Below the pieces are notes generated by a model. It made no database searches and had not been told where the DNA came from. It worked only from the letters and a program-made list of their open reading frames with translations. 64,000 nucleotides of DNA from NCBI GenBank assembly GCA_000092065.1, contig CP000595.1. One strand, given 5' to 3'. Shown in pieces: positions 50,652-59,648 of this stretch; within the stretch, counting starts at the first letter, position 1; the number at the start of each line of letters is the position of its first letter. The translations under genes were made by a program, and so were the position numbers. The DNA is from Ostreococcus lucimarinus (lineage: Eukaryota).

Positions 50652-52085
50652 CTAAAGGAAATCGAACAATCGCAAAATGGCGTCGAAGACGCCGACGGCG
50701 ACTTTTTCATCCATCACGGCGTCGACATCGATGGCGACTTCGTCAGCCATGAGGGCGGTTTCCGCGATTTTCTGAAACGCGTATTGCGCGGCGATTAACG
50801 CCGCGATGGCGGCGGTTTTCGCGTTGACGGCGTTGGGAGAGCTAATGTCGGAATCTTCGCGTTGACACGCGTTCATGGTGTTCACGTGCTCGCCCTCGTC
50901 GTCGCGAATGTTGCTAAAGACGTCGAACAGCGATCTGATTTGCGGACGTCTCAAGCGCACCTCTCTCGCGGTTTGGAACTCGTCGAAAAGGTACAAATCG
51001 GCGGCTTCGTAATATTCGACGGCGATTCTCGGCGCGGGCATGCTCTTCAGGAGCTCGGCGTTTTGATCGACGAATTGCCCGTACGTGTCCACGGCGTGTC
51101 CCTCGATGAGCTCTGAGAAGTTATACGCCAACGCCGGAGATATGAGCCACAGCGCGACGAGCACGAAGTAATACACGATGGCGGCGTGCTGGCCCAAAAA
51201 ACGATCCCGCCAACACGCGTCGCCGCCGAGCGACTCCATGACGAGCAGATGATGATACTCGTTCCATTCCTCCGCGAAGTGCACTTTACGAAGCTCCGAG
51301 CTTCGTCGCCACCATCCCAAGATTTCATAAAACGTCAGCATGGACGTGTAACTAAAGTACGGCATCCTCGCGACGGTTTCAAGAAACCAAAACCGTTGCA
51401 CCGGCTGCGTCTCGTCGAACAATTTATCCAACATCACGCACAGCGCCACGTACGGCACCTTCAGTATCCAAGGCGCCGAAATCTCCGGCCTCGCTCGCTC
51501 CCGCGCCCAAATCGCGTCCGCGTCCAATCGCAGCGCGTCCATCTTCGCCCGCAACTCGGCCGGCATCGCGTCTCGCGCCTTCTCCGTCTCTGGCGTATTC
51601 GCGTCGAAATACGCCATCATCTCTCTGAGCTCGCGCGCGAAGTTCTCGGTGCCGCTCTGCAAAAACCCTCGCGGCACACCGTGTCGTTCGATGTCGATGT
51701 AGCACCCTCGCAAGCTCGCGATGTAGCCGTACGAACACGAAAACTCGACGTCGTCGTCGTCGTCTCGCGACGCCTCCCTCGCGAGCGTCGCCGCCGCGTA
51801 CGCCAGCTCCGCTTTCGCCAGCGCCGCCTTCGCCGCGTCGCGAGACGCCCGCAGGGCGTCGACGTCGGTGTTTCGCGCGATCGCGGCCCTCGTTTCGCGC
51901 GTCGTCGCGCTCGCGAAGGCGTCGGCGACGTCTTCCGGGACGTCGGCACCGTCCTCGACGCCGTCGCGCGTCGCGCGCGCGCGACGCCGCGCGCGCGACG
52001 TCGCGAGACGCCGACCGCGCCTCGGTCCGTTCGCGCGCGCGACGACGCGCGCGCGCGACGGCGCGACGGCGCGCGGCGTCGTCAT
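50652..52085 (-). CDS. PTOX: Plastid terminal oxidase (PTOX/IMMUTANS; plastoquinol oxidase, di-iron carboxylate family), plastid-targeted
   Basis: All iron-ligand motifs are present: LETVARMPYF, EEWNEYHHLL, ELIEGHAVDTY and DDEGEHV. It is collinear with Arabidopsis IMMUTANS from WIIKLEQ to the C-terminus. The ORF runs up to 52943 but would overlap the divergent gene; the first non-overlapping ATG at 52085 was verified and gives a transit-peptide-like MTTPRAVAPSRARV.... Confidence 0.85.
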   Translation of the reverse strand: MTTPRAVAPSRARVVARANGPRRGRRLATSRARRRARATRDGVEDGADVPEDVADAFASATTRETRAAIARNTDVDALRASRDAAKAALAKAELAYAAATLAREASRDDDDDVEFSCSYGYIASLRGCYIDIERHGVPRGFLQSGTENFARELREMMAYFDANTPETEKARDAMPAELRAKMDALRLDADAIWARERARPEISAPWILKVPYVALCVMLDKLFDETQPVQRFWFLETVARMPYFSYTSMLTFYEILGWWRRSSELRKVHFAEEWNEYHHLLVMESLGGDACWRDRFLGQHAAIVYYFVLVALWLISPALAYNFSELIEGHAVDTYGQFVDQNAELLKSMPAPRIAVEYYEAADLYLFDEFQTAREVRLRRPQIRSLFDVFSNIRDDEGEHVNTMNACQREDSDISSPNAVNAKTAAIAALIAAQYAFQKIAETALMADEVAIDVDAVMDEKVAVGVFDAILRLFDFL

Positions 52086-52114
52086 GACGCCGACCGCCGA
52101 CGACGCGCCAAACA

Positions 52115-53305
52115 ATGACGCGATGTTCGACGGCTCGCCTCGCGACGCCGAGCCCGCGCGCGCGCGCGCGCGACGCGCGCGCTCGAGCGGTTCGCGACGA
52201 CGCCCCCGCGCGCTGGCGATGTCCGGCGTGCCTTCGACGGGGCGCGCGGGAGCGGTTGCGGTCGGAGCGGGACGCCAACTGTATCGACGGCGGCGATGAA
52301 AAACGCGCCGCGGCGACGTATCGCTGCGCGAACGGACACGCGCTCGACGCGAGCGCGTCTGGGTACGTGAATTTGTTCGTCGGGAAGCGCGCGCGAGGGG
52401 ACTCGAGGGCGCAGCTGCGCGCGAGACGGCGATTTTTGGTCGAGGGCGGGCACTTCGGCGCGCTGAGCGAGGCGGTGGCGGACGCGGTGTTGGGACGCGC
52501 GGCGGACGCGCGCGATGGGGACGCGGAATTAGGGTTAGCGGTAGAATTAAGGTCTGGAGGCGATGCGGCGTCGACGACGGCGACGTCGCCACGAGCGAGA
52601 CGCATGGCGCGGAAGCGGGAAGCGAGGAGCGAAGCGCGCGCGGCGAATCCGAACGCGGCGAACCCGAACGCGGCGTCGGCGAAGGTGAAGGCGAAACCGC
52701 TCCGAGTGGTCGATTTCGGGTGCGGTGAGGGCTATTATTCATCCGTCGTGCTCGAGCGCGCGAGAGCGCGGGATGACGTCGAGTTGGAACTCGCGGCGTT
52801 GGACGCTTCGAAGGACGCCGCCGATTTGTGCGCGGCGGCCATCGGCCGATTCGCGCGCGTCGCCGTCGCTGACGCGACGCGCGATTTGCCCCTGGACGAT
52901 GATAGCGTAGACGTCGCCATGAGTGTATTCGCACCGCGTTCACCGACGGAGCTCGCGAGGGTACTAAGGAAAGGCGGTCGAGCCGTCGTCGCGAGTCCGG
53001 ACGACGATCACATGGTCGAGCTTCGCGACGCGTTCCGGGACGACGACAAAATCACCGTCCTCGGCGTCGAGCCGAACAAGTCCACTCGCGTTGATGAAGC
53101 TTTTCTTGCCGCCGGGTTCGACGTCGTGTTCCGACGCGCGATTCGCGACGTGGTTCCGCTTCCCGCCGACGCCGTAGCCGATCTCGTCTTCATGGGTCCG
53201 AGTGGCTTTCACAACCCAGAATCAGCTATTCGCGACGCAGTCGGCGATGCCCCGCGTGTCGTGACGATATCGTTTAACGTTGTCGTGTACGCTTTGCTTC
53301 GGTGA
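52115..53305 (+). CDS. RlmA/RrmA-type 23S rRNA (guanine-N1)-methyltransferase, organellar
   Basis: ATG at 52115 was verified. It has the N-terminal zinc-finger CPAC...CANGHALD, GYVNLF, the class-I methyltransferase motif I VVDFGCGEGYY, and collinearity with E. coli RlmA. Confidence 0.7.
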   Translation: MTRCSTARLATPSPRARARDARARAVRDDAPARWRCPACLRRGARERLRSERDANCIDGGDEKRAAATYRCANGHALDASASGYVNLFVGKRARGDSRAQLRARRRFLVEGGHFGALSEAVADAVLGRAADARDGDAELGLAVELRSGGDAASTTATSPRARRMARKREARSEARAANPNAANPNAASAKVKAKPLRVVDFGCGEGYYSSVVLERARARDDVELELAALDASKDAADLCAAAIGRFARVAVADATRDLPLDDDSVDVAMSVFAPRSPTELARVLRKGGRAVVASPDDDHMVELRDAFRDDDKITVLGVEPNKSTRVDEAFLAAGFDVVFRRAIRDVVPLPADAVADLVFMGPSGFHNPESAIRDAVGDAPRVVTISFNVVVYALLR

Positions 53306-53411
53306 TGCTGTGCCCATAGACTCCCGTATCGTCGTGTTGTTTGTCAATCAAGCAATCAATTGTGTGCTCGCGCTACAATATCTAGTTAAAAATTCAAAGA
53401 ATGGAACTGGT

Positions 53412-55280
53412 TTACTGATTGATGGACGCCATCGTGCGCACGACGACGTGCCCGAGTCCTTCGTCAAAGGCGATACCGTTCTGAGTCAACCAGCGCATGA
53501 TGTCGCCGTGAATAACGCGTCCGCCGCGGCTGTGATTCCCTCGCCCGGTGATGAGTTTGATTGACCAGTCCGAACTCACCATTGGCGCTATCTTCAGCAG
53601 TTCGCGCTCGAGACGTCGAATCGCGTCCAACCTATCGTAACCGTGGAAATCAATGACGCGATTGAAGCCTCGATTATCGTTGTCCGCTGTCGAAGGTGCT
53701 ACAACCTCGGTATCAATCGACTCGAGCGCCTGCTTCAATTTCGCCTTTTCGCCGAGCAACGCCGCGGCGCGTGTATCGCCCCTATCTCTCTGCACTCGCA
53801 AGCGCGACATTTCTTCAGAGAGCTCTTCTAGACGCGCGGCGTTTCTATCCGACAAATTTACGCTTAACCTCTGCGTCTTCGCCTTTGGACCTTGTAGGAA
53901 CGCCAAGTGTTTTGCAGCGTTTATGATTTCCGCGCGCGCCCCGCTGACTTCCCAATTCGGCGTCGAGCTGGGCGGCGGCTTAGAGACCCAAGTCGTCCCG
54001 CTCGTGATTGTCACCTCTCGTCGGTCGGTACCTAATCCGGCGGCTTGGAGACGGCGCGTAGTTTCCTCATCACGAGCTTTCCGACGTTGCGCTTTCGCTT
54101 GTGCGCGGCGGATCTTCTTGCTCAGCCCTTTGCTGATTCCTTCCTTCTTGGAAGAATTGTCTTCGGATTCGGGTTCGGAGTCATATTCGGATTCGGATCC
54201 ATATTCGTCGTCTTCCGTATCGTACTCCGAATAGTATTCATCGTTGTCGTACATGTCCTCGATGTCCGGCGCGATGCTGGCCAACAAATCTTGCGCCGTC
54301 GCCTCCATGTCGTAGCCAAATCGAATGAACGTCGTCTTCACAAACTCTGGATGATGCTCCTCGAACATCTCGCACAAGCTCAAGTACTCGCGTCGTATGT
54401 TATTTCGTCGTTTTTCCTCCTTCAGTGCCTGCTTTTTCGCCTCGGCGACGGCGCGTTCCGCCATTTCCTCCGCCGTCAACGGCCGCGCCTCCTCGCGCGC
54501 CTTTGCCTTCGCCTTCGCCGCCGCGATTTGTTTCTTCGTCATATACTCCGGTCGCGTCGACGTCGCGCGCGGTGCCGCCTCGCTCGTTCGCCCCAACGAG
54601 TGTTTGTTCTTAGTCGGACTCGCCAATCCCGGAATCGCCGACGAAGATCCCGAGTGCCGCCCCGAATCGCTCGTCTCGCCCCCGAATCCAAAATCGACGC
54701 TGCCGTCTCTCATCTTCACTCCTAGCCGACACTCCAACCGCAGCGCCTCATCGCTCGCGCCCAACGCCCGCAAATCCAACCCCTCGTCTCGCGCCAAATC
54801 CTCCGCGACGACGTCGCCCAGAGTTCTCCACTCCATCGTCTCCGGCGCGAACACCGACACGTGCGGCGTCGCCGGCGTCTCCAGCCCCGTCAGCTCGCGA
54901 TCCATCTCGATCGACACCGCCATCACCATCGCGCGCGGTCGCACGCACGCGTGCGTCATCGTCACCGTCACCGCGCGCGATCGCCGTCGCCGCGCGAGCT
55001 CGAGCACTCGCGTCGTCGCGTCTCGATCCGGCGCGTGCGCGAGCGTCACGTGATCCGCCGACGATTTCGCGCCCGGCGGCGCGCACGACATCCCCAGCAG
55101 TCGGTGCGCGAGCGCCCACACCTTTCGGCGCGCGTCGGCGTCCAGGAACAGGCCGGCGTAGTGCGCGTCGCCGTCGCCGTCGTCATCATCGCGCGCCATG
55201 ATGTGAAGCGACGCGCGCGCGCGGCGTCGTCCGTCGGCACACGGCGACGCGCGCGCGCGCGGCGTCGCGAGCGAACGCAT
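53412..55280 (-). CDS. Smr-domain protein of N4BP2/Cue2 type: N-terminal 2H-phosphoesterase-like motifs, CUE-like segment, DUF1771 and C-terminal Smr nuclease domain
   Basis: The C-terminal Smr domain reads VIDFHGYDRLDAIRRLERELL...ITGRGNHSRGGRVIHGDIMRWL. Upstream are a basic coiled region (DUF1771-like) and a CUE-like helix LCEMFEEHHPEFVKTTFIRFGYDMEATAQDLL. The N-terminal region carries two H-x-T/S-x motifs (DHVTLAH and PHVSVFA) about 60 residues apart, as in 2H phosphoesterases. Start is ATG 55280, with an alternative at 55199; both verified. Confidence 0.6.
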   Translation of the reverse strand: MRSLATPRARASPCADGRRRARASLHIMARDDDDGDGDAHYAGLFLDADARRKVWALAHRLLGMSCAPPGAKSSADHVTLAHAPDRDATTRVLELARRRRSRAVTVTMTHACVRPRAMVMAVSIEMDRELTGLETPATPHVSVFAPETMEWRTLGDVVAEDLARDEGLDLRALGASDEALRLECRLGVKMRDGSVDFGFGGETSDSGRHSGSSSAIPGLASPTKNKHSLGRTSEAAPRATSTRPEYMTKKQIAAAKAKAKAREEARPLTAEEMAERAVAEAKKQALKEEKRRNNIRREYLSLCEMFEEHHPEFVKTTFIRFGYDMEATAQDLLASIAPDIEDMYDNDEYYSEYDTEDDEYGSESEYDSEPESEDNSSKKEGISKGLSKKIRRAQAKAQRRKARDEETTRRLQAAGLGTDRREVTITSGTTWVSKPPPSSTPNWEVSGARAEIINAAKHLAFLQGPKAKTQRLSVNLSDRNAARLEELSEEMSRLRVQRDRGDTRAAALLGEKAKLKQALESIDTEVVAPSTADNDNRGFNRVIDFHGYDRLDAIRRLERELLKIAPMVSSDWSIKLITGRGNHSRGGRVIHGDIMRWLTQNGIAFDEGLGHVVVRTMASINQ

Positions 55281-55424
55281 CGCGCAAACCGCGCGTCGAG
55301 CGCTCGACGTCGCGCGCGAACCGCGACGCGAAATCGTCGAACGGCGCGCGAATCGTCGCGAATCGCGAGAGGCAACGGTGACGGACGAGACGACGACGCG
55401 CGGCGTCGCGCGACGACGGCGACG

Positions 55425-55604
55425 ATGCTGCTGCGGCGTGGAGAGTTTGTGTTTCTAGCGGCGGTGCTCGTGGGGGCGTACGGCGTCGATCGAGGGATCA
55501 CGGCGCTGGTGGCGGCGACGTGCGCGTACTACGCGGCGAGGTGGGCGACGAGGCGACGAGGCGAGACGGACGCGCGAGGGAACGAAGACGACGAACGACG
55601 ACGA

Positions 55605-55636
<32 letters not shown>

Positions 55637-58600
55637 ACTGACGGGAGGCGGTGGTGCTGCGCGACGTAGGTTTTTCTTGCTGAAGCGAGCGATACGGGCG
55701 ATACGAAGATTGAAAGAGCTGCGCGAGGCGGCGATGAAGCGGTCGAACGAGCTTCGAGGGGTGTTGCTCGAGGAGTATAAGATTCGAGCGTTTCAGAGCG
55801 TGTCGCTGAAGTTGTTCGACATGCCGCATCAGCCGCGGCGAATGCGACAGGCGGTGCGAATTTGGCGGGCGTGGCGGGTGCAGACGAAGCTCAAGGCGAA
55901 ATTAAAGGATATTCGCGGCGACGGGTTGAGCGTGCTGCACAAGACGGAGGAGGATTTGCGAGAGGCGATGTCGGCGCACGGATTGGCGACGATGCCGCCG
56001 AGCGGGGGAGCGATGCATTTAGATCCGACGTTGGAGGCTTTGAAGGCGTGCTCGGCGTGTCGTGGGATGTCGGAGAGCGCTTTGGCGACGCTTCGCTCGC
56101 GGGCGAAAACCGTCGTCGTGCGCCCGAAAGAGCGCGTGGGCGAATCGGTGGCGCGCGACGAGTTGACCGTGTTGGTCGACGGCGAGGTTGATTTGCGAGG
56201 ACAGATAGAGATTGATGTGAGTGTGCGAGGAGACGTCGAGCAGAAAGCGATGACGACTTTGTGTTCGCGGCCGGGAACGTGCTTGAATTCTTTCATGGAT
56301 ATATTAGAACACATTCCGGCGCCGGCTGAGGCGAACGAAGGAGAAGACGCGGCGCGTGCGCTTTCGTCACCATCGGTTGACGGTTTGGGCGAAGAATCGA
56401 CGCCAGCGATGTCACTGAAATCTCATGACGAGAGTGGAGAGCGCGTGCGCGTGCGTCTGACGTTTGGTTCGGATCACGAGCTTCACCGGCGCGATCGCGT
56501 GCGCGTCTCTGCGCGCGCCGCCAATCGAGGTTGCGTCTTAGCGGTGTTTCGCATGTCGGATTATCACGAGTGCGCTGGCACTGTGATTGGCACCCAAGGG
56601 GTGGCGCTGAGACTCGCGAGTGGGTTCGCGGCGGTGTGCAAGTATGTGGGCATGATGGGGGACATGAGATCGCTCTGGGTGCACGATAGAGGCGCCGACG
56701 AGCCGCAACCGAGCGACAGCGACGAAGAGGCACTTGTATGCACACACGCGTTATCTCGGATGCTGGACGCCAAAGTAGTGAGCTTGATTGATACGAGTGG
56801 CGTTATTGCTACGTTGGAGCGACATGGGTACAGAAAACGTAGCTCCGGAGCGGCGTCGAAGAGCGGCGGATTCTTCGCTAGGCGCAAGGAAAAGAAGAAC
56901 GCTGAGCCAGAACCAGAGCCGACGTCGGAAGTCTCGGTCGAGACGAAAGTGTTTCCTCCTGGTGCGATCGTGTTACAACAAGGTGCTTCAGCCGCTGCAC
57001 TCATCGTCGAACGAGGCTCGCTAGAAGCGCTCGTCGAAGCAGTACCATCCTCGAGACGAGAAAAGCCACCGCTACCGAATTCCTCGCCGCGAATTCGTCA
57101 GGCATCAGAGACGCCAATTTTCACCGCCAACGTCGGCGACATCGTTGGTTCACATTTGCTGTTGACTGGTCAGCGCAGCGGTCTGACGATTCGTGCTGGT
57201 TCGAGCGGTGCCGTTGTGGTTTTGCTTCCGTTGAGTACCCTGGCTCGCTTGGGCCGCACGCGCGCTGCCATAACACATAAGATGGTCGTGTCACTCGCAC
57301 GAAGAGTGCGCGACGCACCGAGCTCACTGATTTGGGATCGATGTGGCGCTGAAATGGAAACGCTCGAGGCGGGTGAAGCTTTAAATGCGCGTGCAGGCGG
57401 CGTGCACATCGTCGTCACGGGTTGCCTGCGGGAACAGATGGAAGAACCCCACGGGCTATCGCGCGCGAATTCTTCGCAAAATTTGTTCAAGCGACGAAAG
57501 TCGCAAAGTGGTAAGTCTACCGCTGCGTACGTTCCAAGTGGTCCTGGCTACGTCGTGAGCCCTGGCGAGGCGACTGGAGAAGATTCGGTTCTCATGGAAA
57601 CCACCGCATCGCGACCCATGGCGGCGACGCCGAGATCGAGACGGCAGAGCTTGATGGCACCCGCGGCTAGGTTCACAGCGCGTGCTGTGCGAGACTCGCA
57701 AGTGTTATGGATATCATCCGCCGGATTGGACACGCTCGCGTTCGCCGCGCCCACGGCATTCGTACGCCTGGCGCGCGGTTTGGGTTTGCGTCAGGCCAAT
57801 CGTACGGCGGCGTTGTCCGGAACCGCGCACACGGCGCCTCTGATTCCTGGTTTAGTGCTTTCCCAGAAGGCGTCCAACGCGCCGAAGACAGTCTCAGTCA
57901 TTCCCGTCACCGAAGGTGCCGCCGTTCATTTGGACGAATTTTGCTACTCCTTAGCCTTCGCGCTGAGTAAGATTTGTCGCGCGAGAACAGTGGACTCCGC
58001 GTGCCGGCTTGGGGAACTCGGACAAGCCGCTATCGGACCGCTCGCACAAGAAGCGACGGCGAATTGGCTTTCTCAACTTGAATCAGCGTATGACGTCGTG
58101 ATCTTGAAAGGGGATCCTTTCCCGTCGCCTTGGTGCGCACAATGCGCTCGACACAGCGATACCATTTTGCTCGTCGCCAACGCAAACGATCAAGCGCCGA
58201 CGCACGAGGAAGGGCAAACTCTACAAGATCGCCTTCTTCACGGTCTCGGTGAGACAAAATTTCAACGCGTCTTGCTTGCTCAACGAGAACTTGTGCTTTT
58301 GCACCAAGACGCCGATGTGACGCCCAAGGATACGAAATCTTGGCTCACGGCGTTCAGCGTCCAACGTCATCATCACGTCGCCATGCAGGCGTCTTCTGGT
58401 CTCGTGCCGTCGCATGCCGCGCGTCTCGCCCGCTCACTTCGCGAGTTATCCGTTGGTTTAGTCATGGGTGGTGGAGGTGCACGTGGGTTGGCTCACGTGG
58501 GTGTTCTCGCGGCGATGGAAGAAGAGGGCGTTCCGATCGACGCCGTCGGCGGTACGTCCATCGGCGCCATGGTCGGCGGCATGTACGCTCGCGACCCTAG

Positions 58601-59648
58601 CGCCCTTCTCGTTCGCATCATGGTGACGAAGTTTGCCAAGGAAATGTCTAGCGCGTGGGGACGCGTGATCGATCTCACCCTTCCCGTCGTCAGTTACTTC
58701 ACCGGCTGGGGCATGAACCGTGCGCTCGGCATAAATCTCGGCGAAACGAAAATCGAAGACTGCTGGCTGCCGTTCTTTTGCTGCACGCTCGATTTAATCT
58801 CGTGCATGCCAATCGTGCACCGAAACGGTACGCTTTGGCGCTACGTGCGCGCGAGCATGGCACTTGTCGGTTTTTTACCTCCCGTGTGTGACACCGAGCA
58901 AGGACAACAGAAGAACATGCACGTGCTCGTGGACGGCGGATACGTCAATAATCTACCCACGGATGTCATGCGCGCGTTGGGCGCGCACTACGTCATCGCC
59001 GTCGACGTCGCGGGCGAAGGCTTGGATGGGCAATCGCTTACGCCTTGGGGCGATGGTATCAGCGGCACGTGGTTGCTTTTGCGACGACTCCTTCCGCGAT
59101 GGCTCGGTGGTGGACATTCCATCCCGACCATGGCGGACATGCAAGGGCAGCTTCCGTTTGTCACCGACACCGTCAAGCACCAAACGCGCTTGGAAGACAT
59201 CGACGTGTACATTCGTCCGAATGTCTCGAGCATCGGGATTTTGGAATTCAACAAGTACAGCGCCATCATTCGTCACGGTTACGACATCGGTATCAAGATG
59301 GCGCGCGAGTGGAAGTCTGAAAATCCCGACGTCGCGTTACTACTCGAGCAAGGGAGAAACATTCGTCGCGGCTTGACGACGATGCGGTCGGCTCGCTCGG
59401 GCAATCCGAGCGCGACAAACTCACGAGAATCCATCGCTAGCGACTCGGGCAGTGACGCAACCTCGGCGTACGGCAGCGCGGAGGATTTGCACAACCACCG
59501 TCACACCCTCAAGCCACTCAGCGAAGGTTTGCTGAGCGAATTCTCCGACGACGACGACGTCCATGTCCGCTCCCTGCTGCGAACCAATAGTTCATTCGCG
59601 AGCTGGACACCCGCACCGAAACAAAAACGGCCACCAGACATGTTTTAA
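55425..59648 (+). CDS. Neuropathy-target-esterase-like lysophospholipase (NTE/SWS/PNPLA6 family): N-terminal TM, cyclic-nucleotide-binding-like domains, C-terminal patatin domain
   Basis: ATG at 55425 is in frame within ORF 54861..59648. The N-terminal hydrophobic segment is FVFLAAVLVGAYGV. The patatin domain has GLVMGGGGARGLAHVGVL, GGTSIGAMVGGMYA and the DGGYVNNLP catalytic dyad Asp. The central region resembles the cNMP-binding repeats of NTE. A Thr10 tract is encoded by (ACG)n at about 55607-55640. Confidence 0.8.

Follow-up and report, generated by a model that had tools for sequence, protein, structure and literature searches.

The stretch of DNA examined here (the window) comprises 64,000 nucleotides (nt) of contig CP000595.1 from Ostreococcus lucimarinus, is gene-dense, and has a G+C content of 63%. 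An open reading frame (ORF) of 622 codons plus stop occupies positions 53412..55280 of the minus strand, on which all features of this gene lie, and encodes a protein with a predicted 2H phosphoesterase domain at its N-terminus and an Smr nuclease domain at its C-terminus. This 2H-Smr gene is a nuclear gene of a picoplanktonic green alga, and its product falls into a 90%-identity cluster with the O. lucimarinus CCE9901 entry XP_001421714.1 (A4S876), which is labelled "predicted protein". Residue numbers throughout follow the long 622-codon ORF and not the start at Met28 (MARDDDD...). A protein of 595 amino acids (aa) beginning at Met28, with its coding sequence at 53412-55199, is most likely the true product because both the orthologues and the public model XP_001421714.1 begin at this position and the 27 residues upstream of it are unconserved. 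This in-frame extension (residues 1-27, MRSLATPRARASPCADGRRRARASLHI, positions 55200-55280) is rich in Arg, Ala, and Ser and resembles an organellar presequence. A long start at Met1 with a transit-peptide-like extension was considered and rejected, as the extension is not conserved among the orthologues; it is probably 5′ untranslated region.

It had been proposed in the initial annotation, made from the letters of the DNA, that the N-terminus contains two H-x-T/S-x motifs about 60 residues apart and is a putative 2H phosphoesterase rather than a polynucleotide kinase (PNK). A regular-expression scan of the whole protein found H-x-[ST]-x motifs at two places and no others: HVTL begins at residue 77 and HVSV, 63 residues further on, at residue 140, in agreement with that description. 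Tetrapeptides of this kind are expected by chance about once or twice in a protein of this size (a rough estimate), so the two motifs alone are within chance expectation, and it is their conservation that makes them significant. H77, T79, and H140 are invariant in 8 of 8 orthologues that cover the sites (40-99% identity), in 13 sequences that include distant relatives, and in 37 sequences that include non-algal relatives; no covering homologue was seen to lack them. In the 37-sequence alignment, the sole invariant columns are Y41, L46, H77, T79, and H140. The first motif, H77-V-T79-L, is encoded at 55041..55052, and the second, H140-V-S142-V, at 54852..54863; in the latter, the His is invariant, the S/T position is conserved, and a near-invariant Pro precedes the motif. 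The two His and the Thr are the only polar residues counted as invariant across these divergent sequences, which is what selection on catalytic residues would be expected to produce.

To collect the family, a Mamiellales-only profile built from the Ostreococcus orthologues was run exhaustively with HMMER against 1.84 billion representative sequences. Only 13 matches were returned, showing this 2H type to be restricted in distribution, and the profile reached a few distant sequences; one match, a 2325-aa repeat protein (P0016), was judged spurious. A second search, seeded with the distant relatives, yielded a large set of stand-alone proteins of ~136 aa. When compared by hhalign, the algal domain and these proteins matched with a probability of 97.8% (E = 1e-12) across the first half, and more diverse sets gave 99.0% (E = 3e-18) over 137 columns, in which DHVTL aligns with HHMTI and PHVSV with PHITI. 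PF08302, the model for the cyclic-phosphodiesterase (CPD) domain of the fungal tRNA ligase Trl1, was matched by 26 of the 37 aligned domains, all 26 of them non-algal, with a best E value of 1e-9, and one relative (P0021) exceeds the gathering cut-off of this model. In addition, 17 of the 37 match the 2′-5′ RNA ligase superfamily model.

Structure prediction with AlphaFold2 (AF2) from 7 close orthologues only was unusable, with a predicted local distance difference test score (pLDDT) of 36.7. The 37-sequence alignment gave a model of residues 38-200 with a pLDDT of 94.1 and a predicted template modelling score (pTM) of 0.88. This model has the bilobed α+β fold of 2H proteins, and each HxT/S motif begins a β-strand (in the numbering of the model, E40-45 for the first motif and E103-109 for the second). 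CNPase heads the structural matches, followed in order by Deinococcus CPDase, Pyrococcus LigT, Usb1, plant CPDase, coronavirus ns2, Acb1, YjcG, AKAP18, and ASCC1. The Foldseek results are consistent with this and also include 6u05, a kinase-CPD structure of Candida Trl1; among viral proteins, Foldseek retrieves giant-virus ligases that resemble Trl1, coronavirus phosphodiesterases, and Acb1. The predicted 2H domain (residues 38-193, 54702..55169) is nearest to CNPase and the Trl1 CPD. Neither Pfam nor NCBIfam gave an AAA_33 or PNK match in the window protein, so that no P-loop polynucleotide kinase of the N4BP2 type was found. The assignment to 2H rather than PNK made in the initial annotation is thereby upheld by the predicted fold, the conservation over 37 sequences, and the hhalign link to relatives that match PF08302, and the N-terminus very probably adopts a catalytically competent 2H fold.

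The C-terminus is, as read from its motifs and profile matches, an Smr domain like that of N4BP2 (residues 541-616, 53433..53660) with intact catalytic motifs. Taken as a single sequence, it scores below threshold against Pfam Smr (13.9 bits versus a cut-off of 25.7, E = 0.062), as do 8 of 9 family members, and against the Protein Data Bank (PDB) it finds the N4BP2 Smr at E = 0.0097. A profile of the 9-sequence family reaches three Smr structures of N4BP2 (2vkc, 2d9i, and 3fau) with E values from 1e-8 to 2e-7 (best 1.1e-8); with this profile, no other Smr structure was found, MutS2 and SmrA/B being absent at E ≤ 1. The D544-F-H546 motif (53643-53651; IDFHG) and the loop ITGRGNHSRGG (53520-53552) are invariant in the 9 sequences with respect to D, H, G-x-G-x-HS, and GG, and both the catalytic D-x-H and the G-x-G-x-HS loop of the NONU-1/Cue2/N4BP2 family are thus present. 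In Cue2, the residues that matter are D348, H350, and R402 (PMC6598757), and D544-x-H546 and the loop Arg of the algal protein correspond to the D-x-H and loop Arg of Cue2. The earlier assignment to the N4BP2/Cue2 type of Smr nuclease is supported by these results.

Between the two domains, the sequence suggests a long charged linker with a possible CUE/UBA-like module, followed by a helical DUF1771-like region directly before Smr. Evidence for the two middle modules comes by way of the most distant full-length orthologue, P0019 (585 aa; positions 4435-6192 of L004, a 75%-GC contig of marine eukaryote-like character). Its architecture is 2H, CUE, DUF1771-like, and Smr, and it is the only member with a CUE recognised by Pfam (23.7 bits, cut-off 21.1); its DUF1771 (PF08590) scores 23.5 bits, below the cut-off of 28.7, and its Smr is also just sub-threshold. 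No Pfam CUE or DUF1771 was detected in the window protein, in its close Mamiellales orthologues, or in isolated segments from several orthologues. The LCEMFE...AQDLL and RGD..A..L..KA segments of the window protein align positionally with the CUE and DUF1771 of P0019, placing a CUE/UBA-like segment at residues 297-336 (...LCEMFEEHHPEFV...AQDLL..., 54273..54392) and, weakly, the DUF1771-like region at residues 482-523 (53712..53837). Searched against the PDB, a profile of the CUE-like region gave nothing beyond weak matches to the Tollip CUE (E = 0.71) and to a UBA (E = 1.7). When the segment was compared with six CUE sequences validated by Pfam, hhalign placed it in register with a probability of only 25%, or 3% without P0019; as this match is non-significant, the CUE-domain label for residues 297-336 was dropped, and a three-helix module of CUE/UBA type in the linker region is a possibility suggested by the sequence. 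The DUF1771-Smr pair and CUE-like helix described in the initial annotation have accordingly fared unequally: the Smr portion stands on the family profile, whereas CUE and DUF1771 went undetected in this protein and draw their support from P0019.

The nearest known systems to the whole protein are N4BP2 and NONU-1. The likeness lies in the C-terminal Smr, which is most similar to that of human N4BP2 and shares its D-x-H and TGRGNHS(x)GG motifs, in the N-terminal fusion of an enzyme that would modify RNA ends, and perhaps in the weakly assigned DUF1771-like region before Smr, with a CUE that passes Pfam in P0019 only. They differ in that N4BP2 and NONU-1 carry a P-loop polynucleotide kinase for the 5′ end, whereas the algal protein has a predicted 2H cyclic phosphodiesterase that would act on the 3′ end. 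With respect to that domain, the CNPase catalytic domain is larger (~215 aa versus ~155 aa) and its motifs in mouse are 79 residues apart (H230/H309, from PDB entry titles), as opposed to 63. Compared with the Trl1 CPD (PF08302), the algal sequences fall below every Pfam 2H threshold and are fused to Smr rather than to a ligase or kinase. ASCC1 (KH plus 2H), from the ASC-1/RQT-related complex of humans, matches in structure far less well than CNPase does; it belongs to the AKAP7/LigT type and forms a subunit of its own, unfused to any nuclease.

CNPase and the Trl1 CPD convert 2′,3′-cyclic phosphates to 2′-phosphate/3′-OH ends, and the 5′-OH left by a collision nuclease needs a kinase, a role filled by Trl1 in yeast and, presumably, by the fused PNK in animals. 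Taken together, we favour, by a modest degree of belief, a multidomain RNA-processing enzyme of ~595 aa from the NONU-1/Cue2/N4BP2 branch of Smr proteins that would process its own mRNA ends. In this scheme, the Smr domain would cleave mRNA without metal, probably at stalled or collided ribosomes as Cue2 and NONU-1 do, and would leave a 5′-OH and a 2′,3′-cyclic phosphate. The fused 2H domain would then hydrolyse the cyclic phosphate of the upstream fragment to 2′-phosphate/3′-OH, in the manner of CNPase and the Trl1 CPD, and the opened end would be readied for 3′-to-5′ decay or further processing. RNA 2′,3′-cyclic-phosphate ends are the likely substrate of the 2H domain. That this activity is coupled to the Smr products of the same protein in translation surveillance is a realistic possibility that falls short of being probable. 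The ends reported for the no-go-decay nuclease are a cyclic 3′ phosphate and a 5′-OH, consistent with a metal-independent Cue2 (PMC6598757). For NONU-1/N4BP2, the text of Glover et al. 2019 proposes that the PNK domain phosphorylates the 5′-OH for Xrn1 (10.1101/674358).

Several points tell against this interpretation. The N-terminus of the window protein has no match in Pfam or NCBIfam; no Pfam 2H model matches it or any of the 11 algal domains; and N-terminal sequence profiles found no 2H enzyme in the PDB, returning chance matches such as HLA-DR beta and acetolactate synthase. Because no curated 2H model or PDB profile matches directly, the 2H link rests on fold and transitive homology, and the placement of His77 and His140 in a shared cleft is suggested by the strand positions of the model only. 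The CUE-like segment reads MFE in place of the canonical MFP and has hhalign probabilities of 3-25%, so ubiquitin binding by it is unsupported and stays unproven. A 2′-phosphate product is not obviously an end accessible to exonucleases. Lastly, metagenome pipelines label fragments of the protein "DNA-nicking Smr family endonuclease". The missing Pfam match would suit a reading in which the HxT/S motifs are chance or relic and the N-terminus is a non-catalytic RNA-binding or scaffold module, and some 2H-fold proteins, such as the central domain of AKAP18, are thought to be non-catalytic; set against the invariance of both His and the Thr over 37 sequences, the others only 17-49% identical to the window protein, this reading is very improbable.

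A competent 2H domain could also act on substrates other than the RNA products of Smr, in which case the fusion would reflect co-regulation and not a coupled reaction. Candidates are free 2′,3′-cyclic nucleotides, the ADP-ribose 1″,2″-cyclic phosphate from tRNA splicing, 2′-5′ or cyclic oligonucleotides (as for AKAP7, ns2, and Acb1), and 3′ ends trimmed in the manner of USB1; this alternative is regarded as unlikely. The pipeline labels bear on another, in which the protein would nick DNA or work in an organelle as an Smr enzyme, either MutS2/SmrA-like or similar to plant plastid SMR proteins, instead of serving as a cytosolic translation-surveillance factor, with the 27-residue extension as its transit peptide. 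The ORF can indeed be extended to an upstream Met to give MRSLATPRARASPCADGRRRARASLHI, and Smr domains are described as able to nick DNA in vitro (PMC3200294). On the other side, the extension is unconserved and the orthologues start at Met28, the solved Smr matches are those of N4BP2 with no MutS2 or SmrA/B at E ≤ 1, Pfam scans of the protein and its orthologues gave no MutS, PPR, or KOW domain, and P0019 combines CUE, DUF1771, and Smr, which is the signature of NONU-1/Cue2. A DNA-nicking or organellar role is accordingly given only a small chance, below that of a 2H domain acting on other substrates.

It has not, to our knowledge, been established what becomes of the 2′,3′-cyclic phosphate of the upstream fragment, and the RNA-end chemistry and fate of collision-nuclease products are only partly understood. 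A conserved fusion of the nuclease to a CNPase/Trl1-type CPD offers an evolutionary argument that the 3′ end is also actively healed, and the algal enzyme is a compact single protein on which 3′-end healing is testable. We tentatively suggest, as something possible rather than expected, that in picoplanktonic green algae a no-go-decay nuclease processes its own 3′ end, with the Smr cut followed immediately by 2H opening in one polypeptide. If so, the natural fusion would testify independently to cyclic-phosphate ends as the product of eukaryotic Smr nucleases, and it would suggest that removal of the cyclic end is a required and overlooked step in the 3′-to-5′ decay of upstream fragments, mirroring the 5′-kinase step of animals. 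It is a further possibility that the opened ends feed repair by a Trl1-type ligase instead of decay.

The architecture class itself has already been recorded because Glover et al. 2019 list, among NONU-1 homologues, fusions to a "2′-3′ cyclic phosphoesterase (2H)" domain (bioRxiv 10.1101/674358). In the text of that preprint, these fusions take up one sentence and Fig. S3C, the text giving no lineage, sequence, analysis, or experiments (10.1101/674358). Their architecture is that of the Ostreococcus protein, and the text does not establish that the two are the same family. What is new here is the identification of the 2H domain at the level of fold, its placement nearest to CNPase and the Trl1 CPD, the link to the small relatives described below (the mini-CPDs), and the restricted distribution. 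Every full-length family member has 2H and Smr together in one polypeptide.

The public model XP_001421714.1 (557 aa) contains a 40-nt "intron" (GTGAGT...CGAG, 53540-53579) that shifts the frame and removes the conserved Smr motif TGRGNHS. In all orthologues, the unspliced frame is kept as far as the C-terminus, for which reason the public model is probably wrong; the intron, which would destroy a conserved catalytic motif, was rejected. Based on these sequence comparisons, the splicing annotated for the O. lucimarinus gene is probably in error and conceals the Smr domain, and this may lie behind the listing of the protein as uncharacterised. Two further features of the linker were noted. The motif PRATSTRPE (residues 237-245, 54546..54572), in which P237, R238, T240, R243, P244, and E245 are invariant among Mamiellales orthologues, forms with the following Tyr a conserved island, PRATSTRPE(Y), in an otherwise variable linker, and could be a docking or phosphorylation site. 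An acidic low-complexity stretch rich in D, E, Y, and S (residues 345-375, 54156..54248) was read from the sequence and varies in length among the orthologues.

The ~136-aa mini-2H/CPD proteins are encoded on prokaryote or phage contigs of 32% GC (L002 1262-8486 and L003 1143-8367), with the mini-CPD gene directly after an HD plus AAA_33 (Pnkp-like) gene; genes for a CCA/poly(A) polymerase and for an RlaP nucleotidyltransferase lie nearby. The apparent RNA-repair cassette contains the HD+AAA_33 kinase/phosphatase, the 2H gene, a 190-aa gene, the PolyA_pol/CCA-adding enzyme, TnpB (OrfB_IS605), and RlaP. In P0130 and P0131, a domain of mini-CPD type is fused to a PNK-type kinase, and in P0125 its partner is HAD_SAK_1, a domain of the "Swiss-army-knife" proteins of RNA repair. 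Mini-CPDs (P0021, P0130, P0131) are the closest sequence relatives of the algal domain outside the green algae and have the same core secondary-structure pattern but lack the helical insert of ~25 residues that follows the second motif in the algal domain. They also occur alone or fused to kinase or HAD domains in RNA-repair cassettes, whereas the algal domain is fused to Smr. The analysis thus defines a small 2H subfamily, the mini-CPDs of RNA-repair cassettes, with algal members that current Pfam models fail to recognise.

Neighbours of the gene in the window encode an AOX/PTOX-type oxidase, an RlmA-like methyltransferase, and a divergently transcribed neuropathy-target-esterase (NTE)/patatin protein. 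The mechanically called ORFs of AOX and NTE are long and overlap their neighbours because of stop-free, GC-rich upstream extensions. A contig of another alga (L001) encodes a 2H-Smr orthologue of 42% identity within the same flanking gene order, so that the order NTE/patatin, 2H-Smr, RlmA-like methyltransferase, and AOX/PTOX is common to positions 50652-59648 of the window and 3562-12669 of L001.
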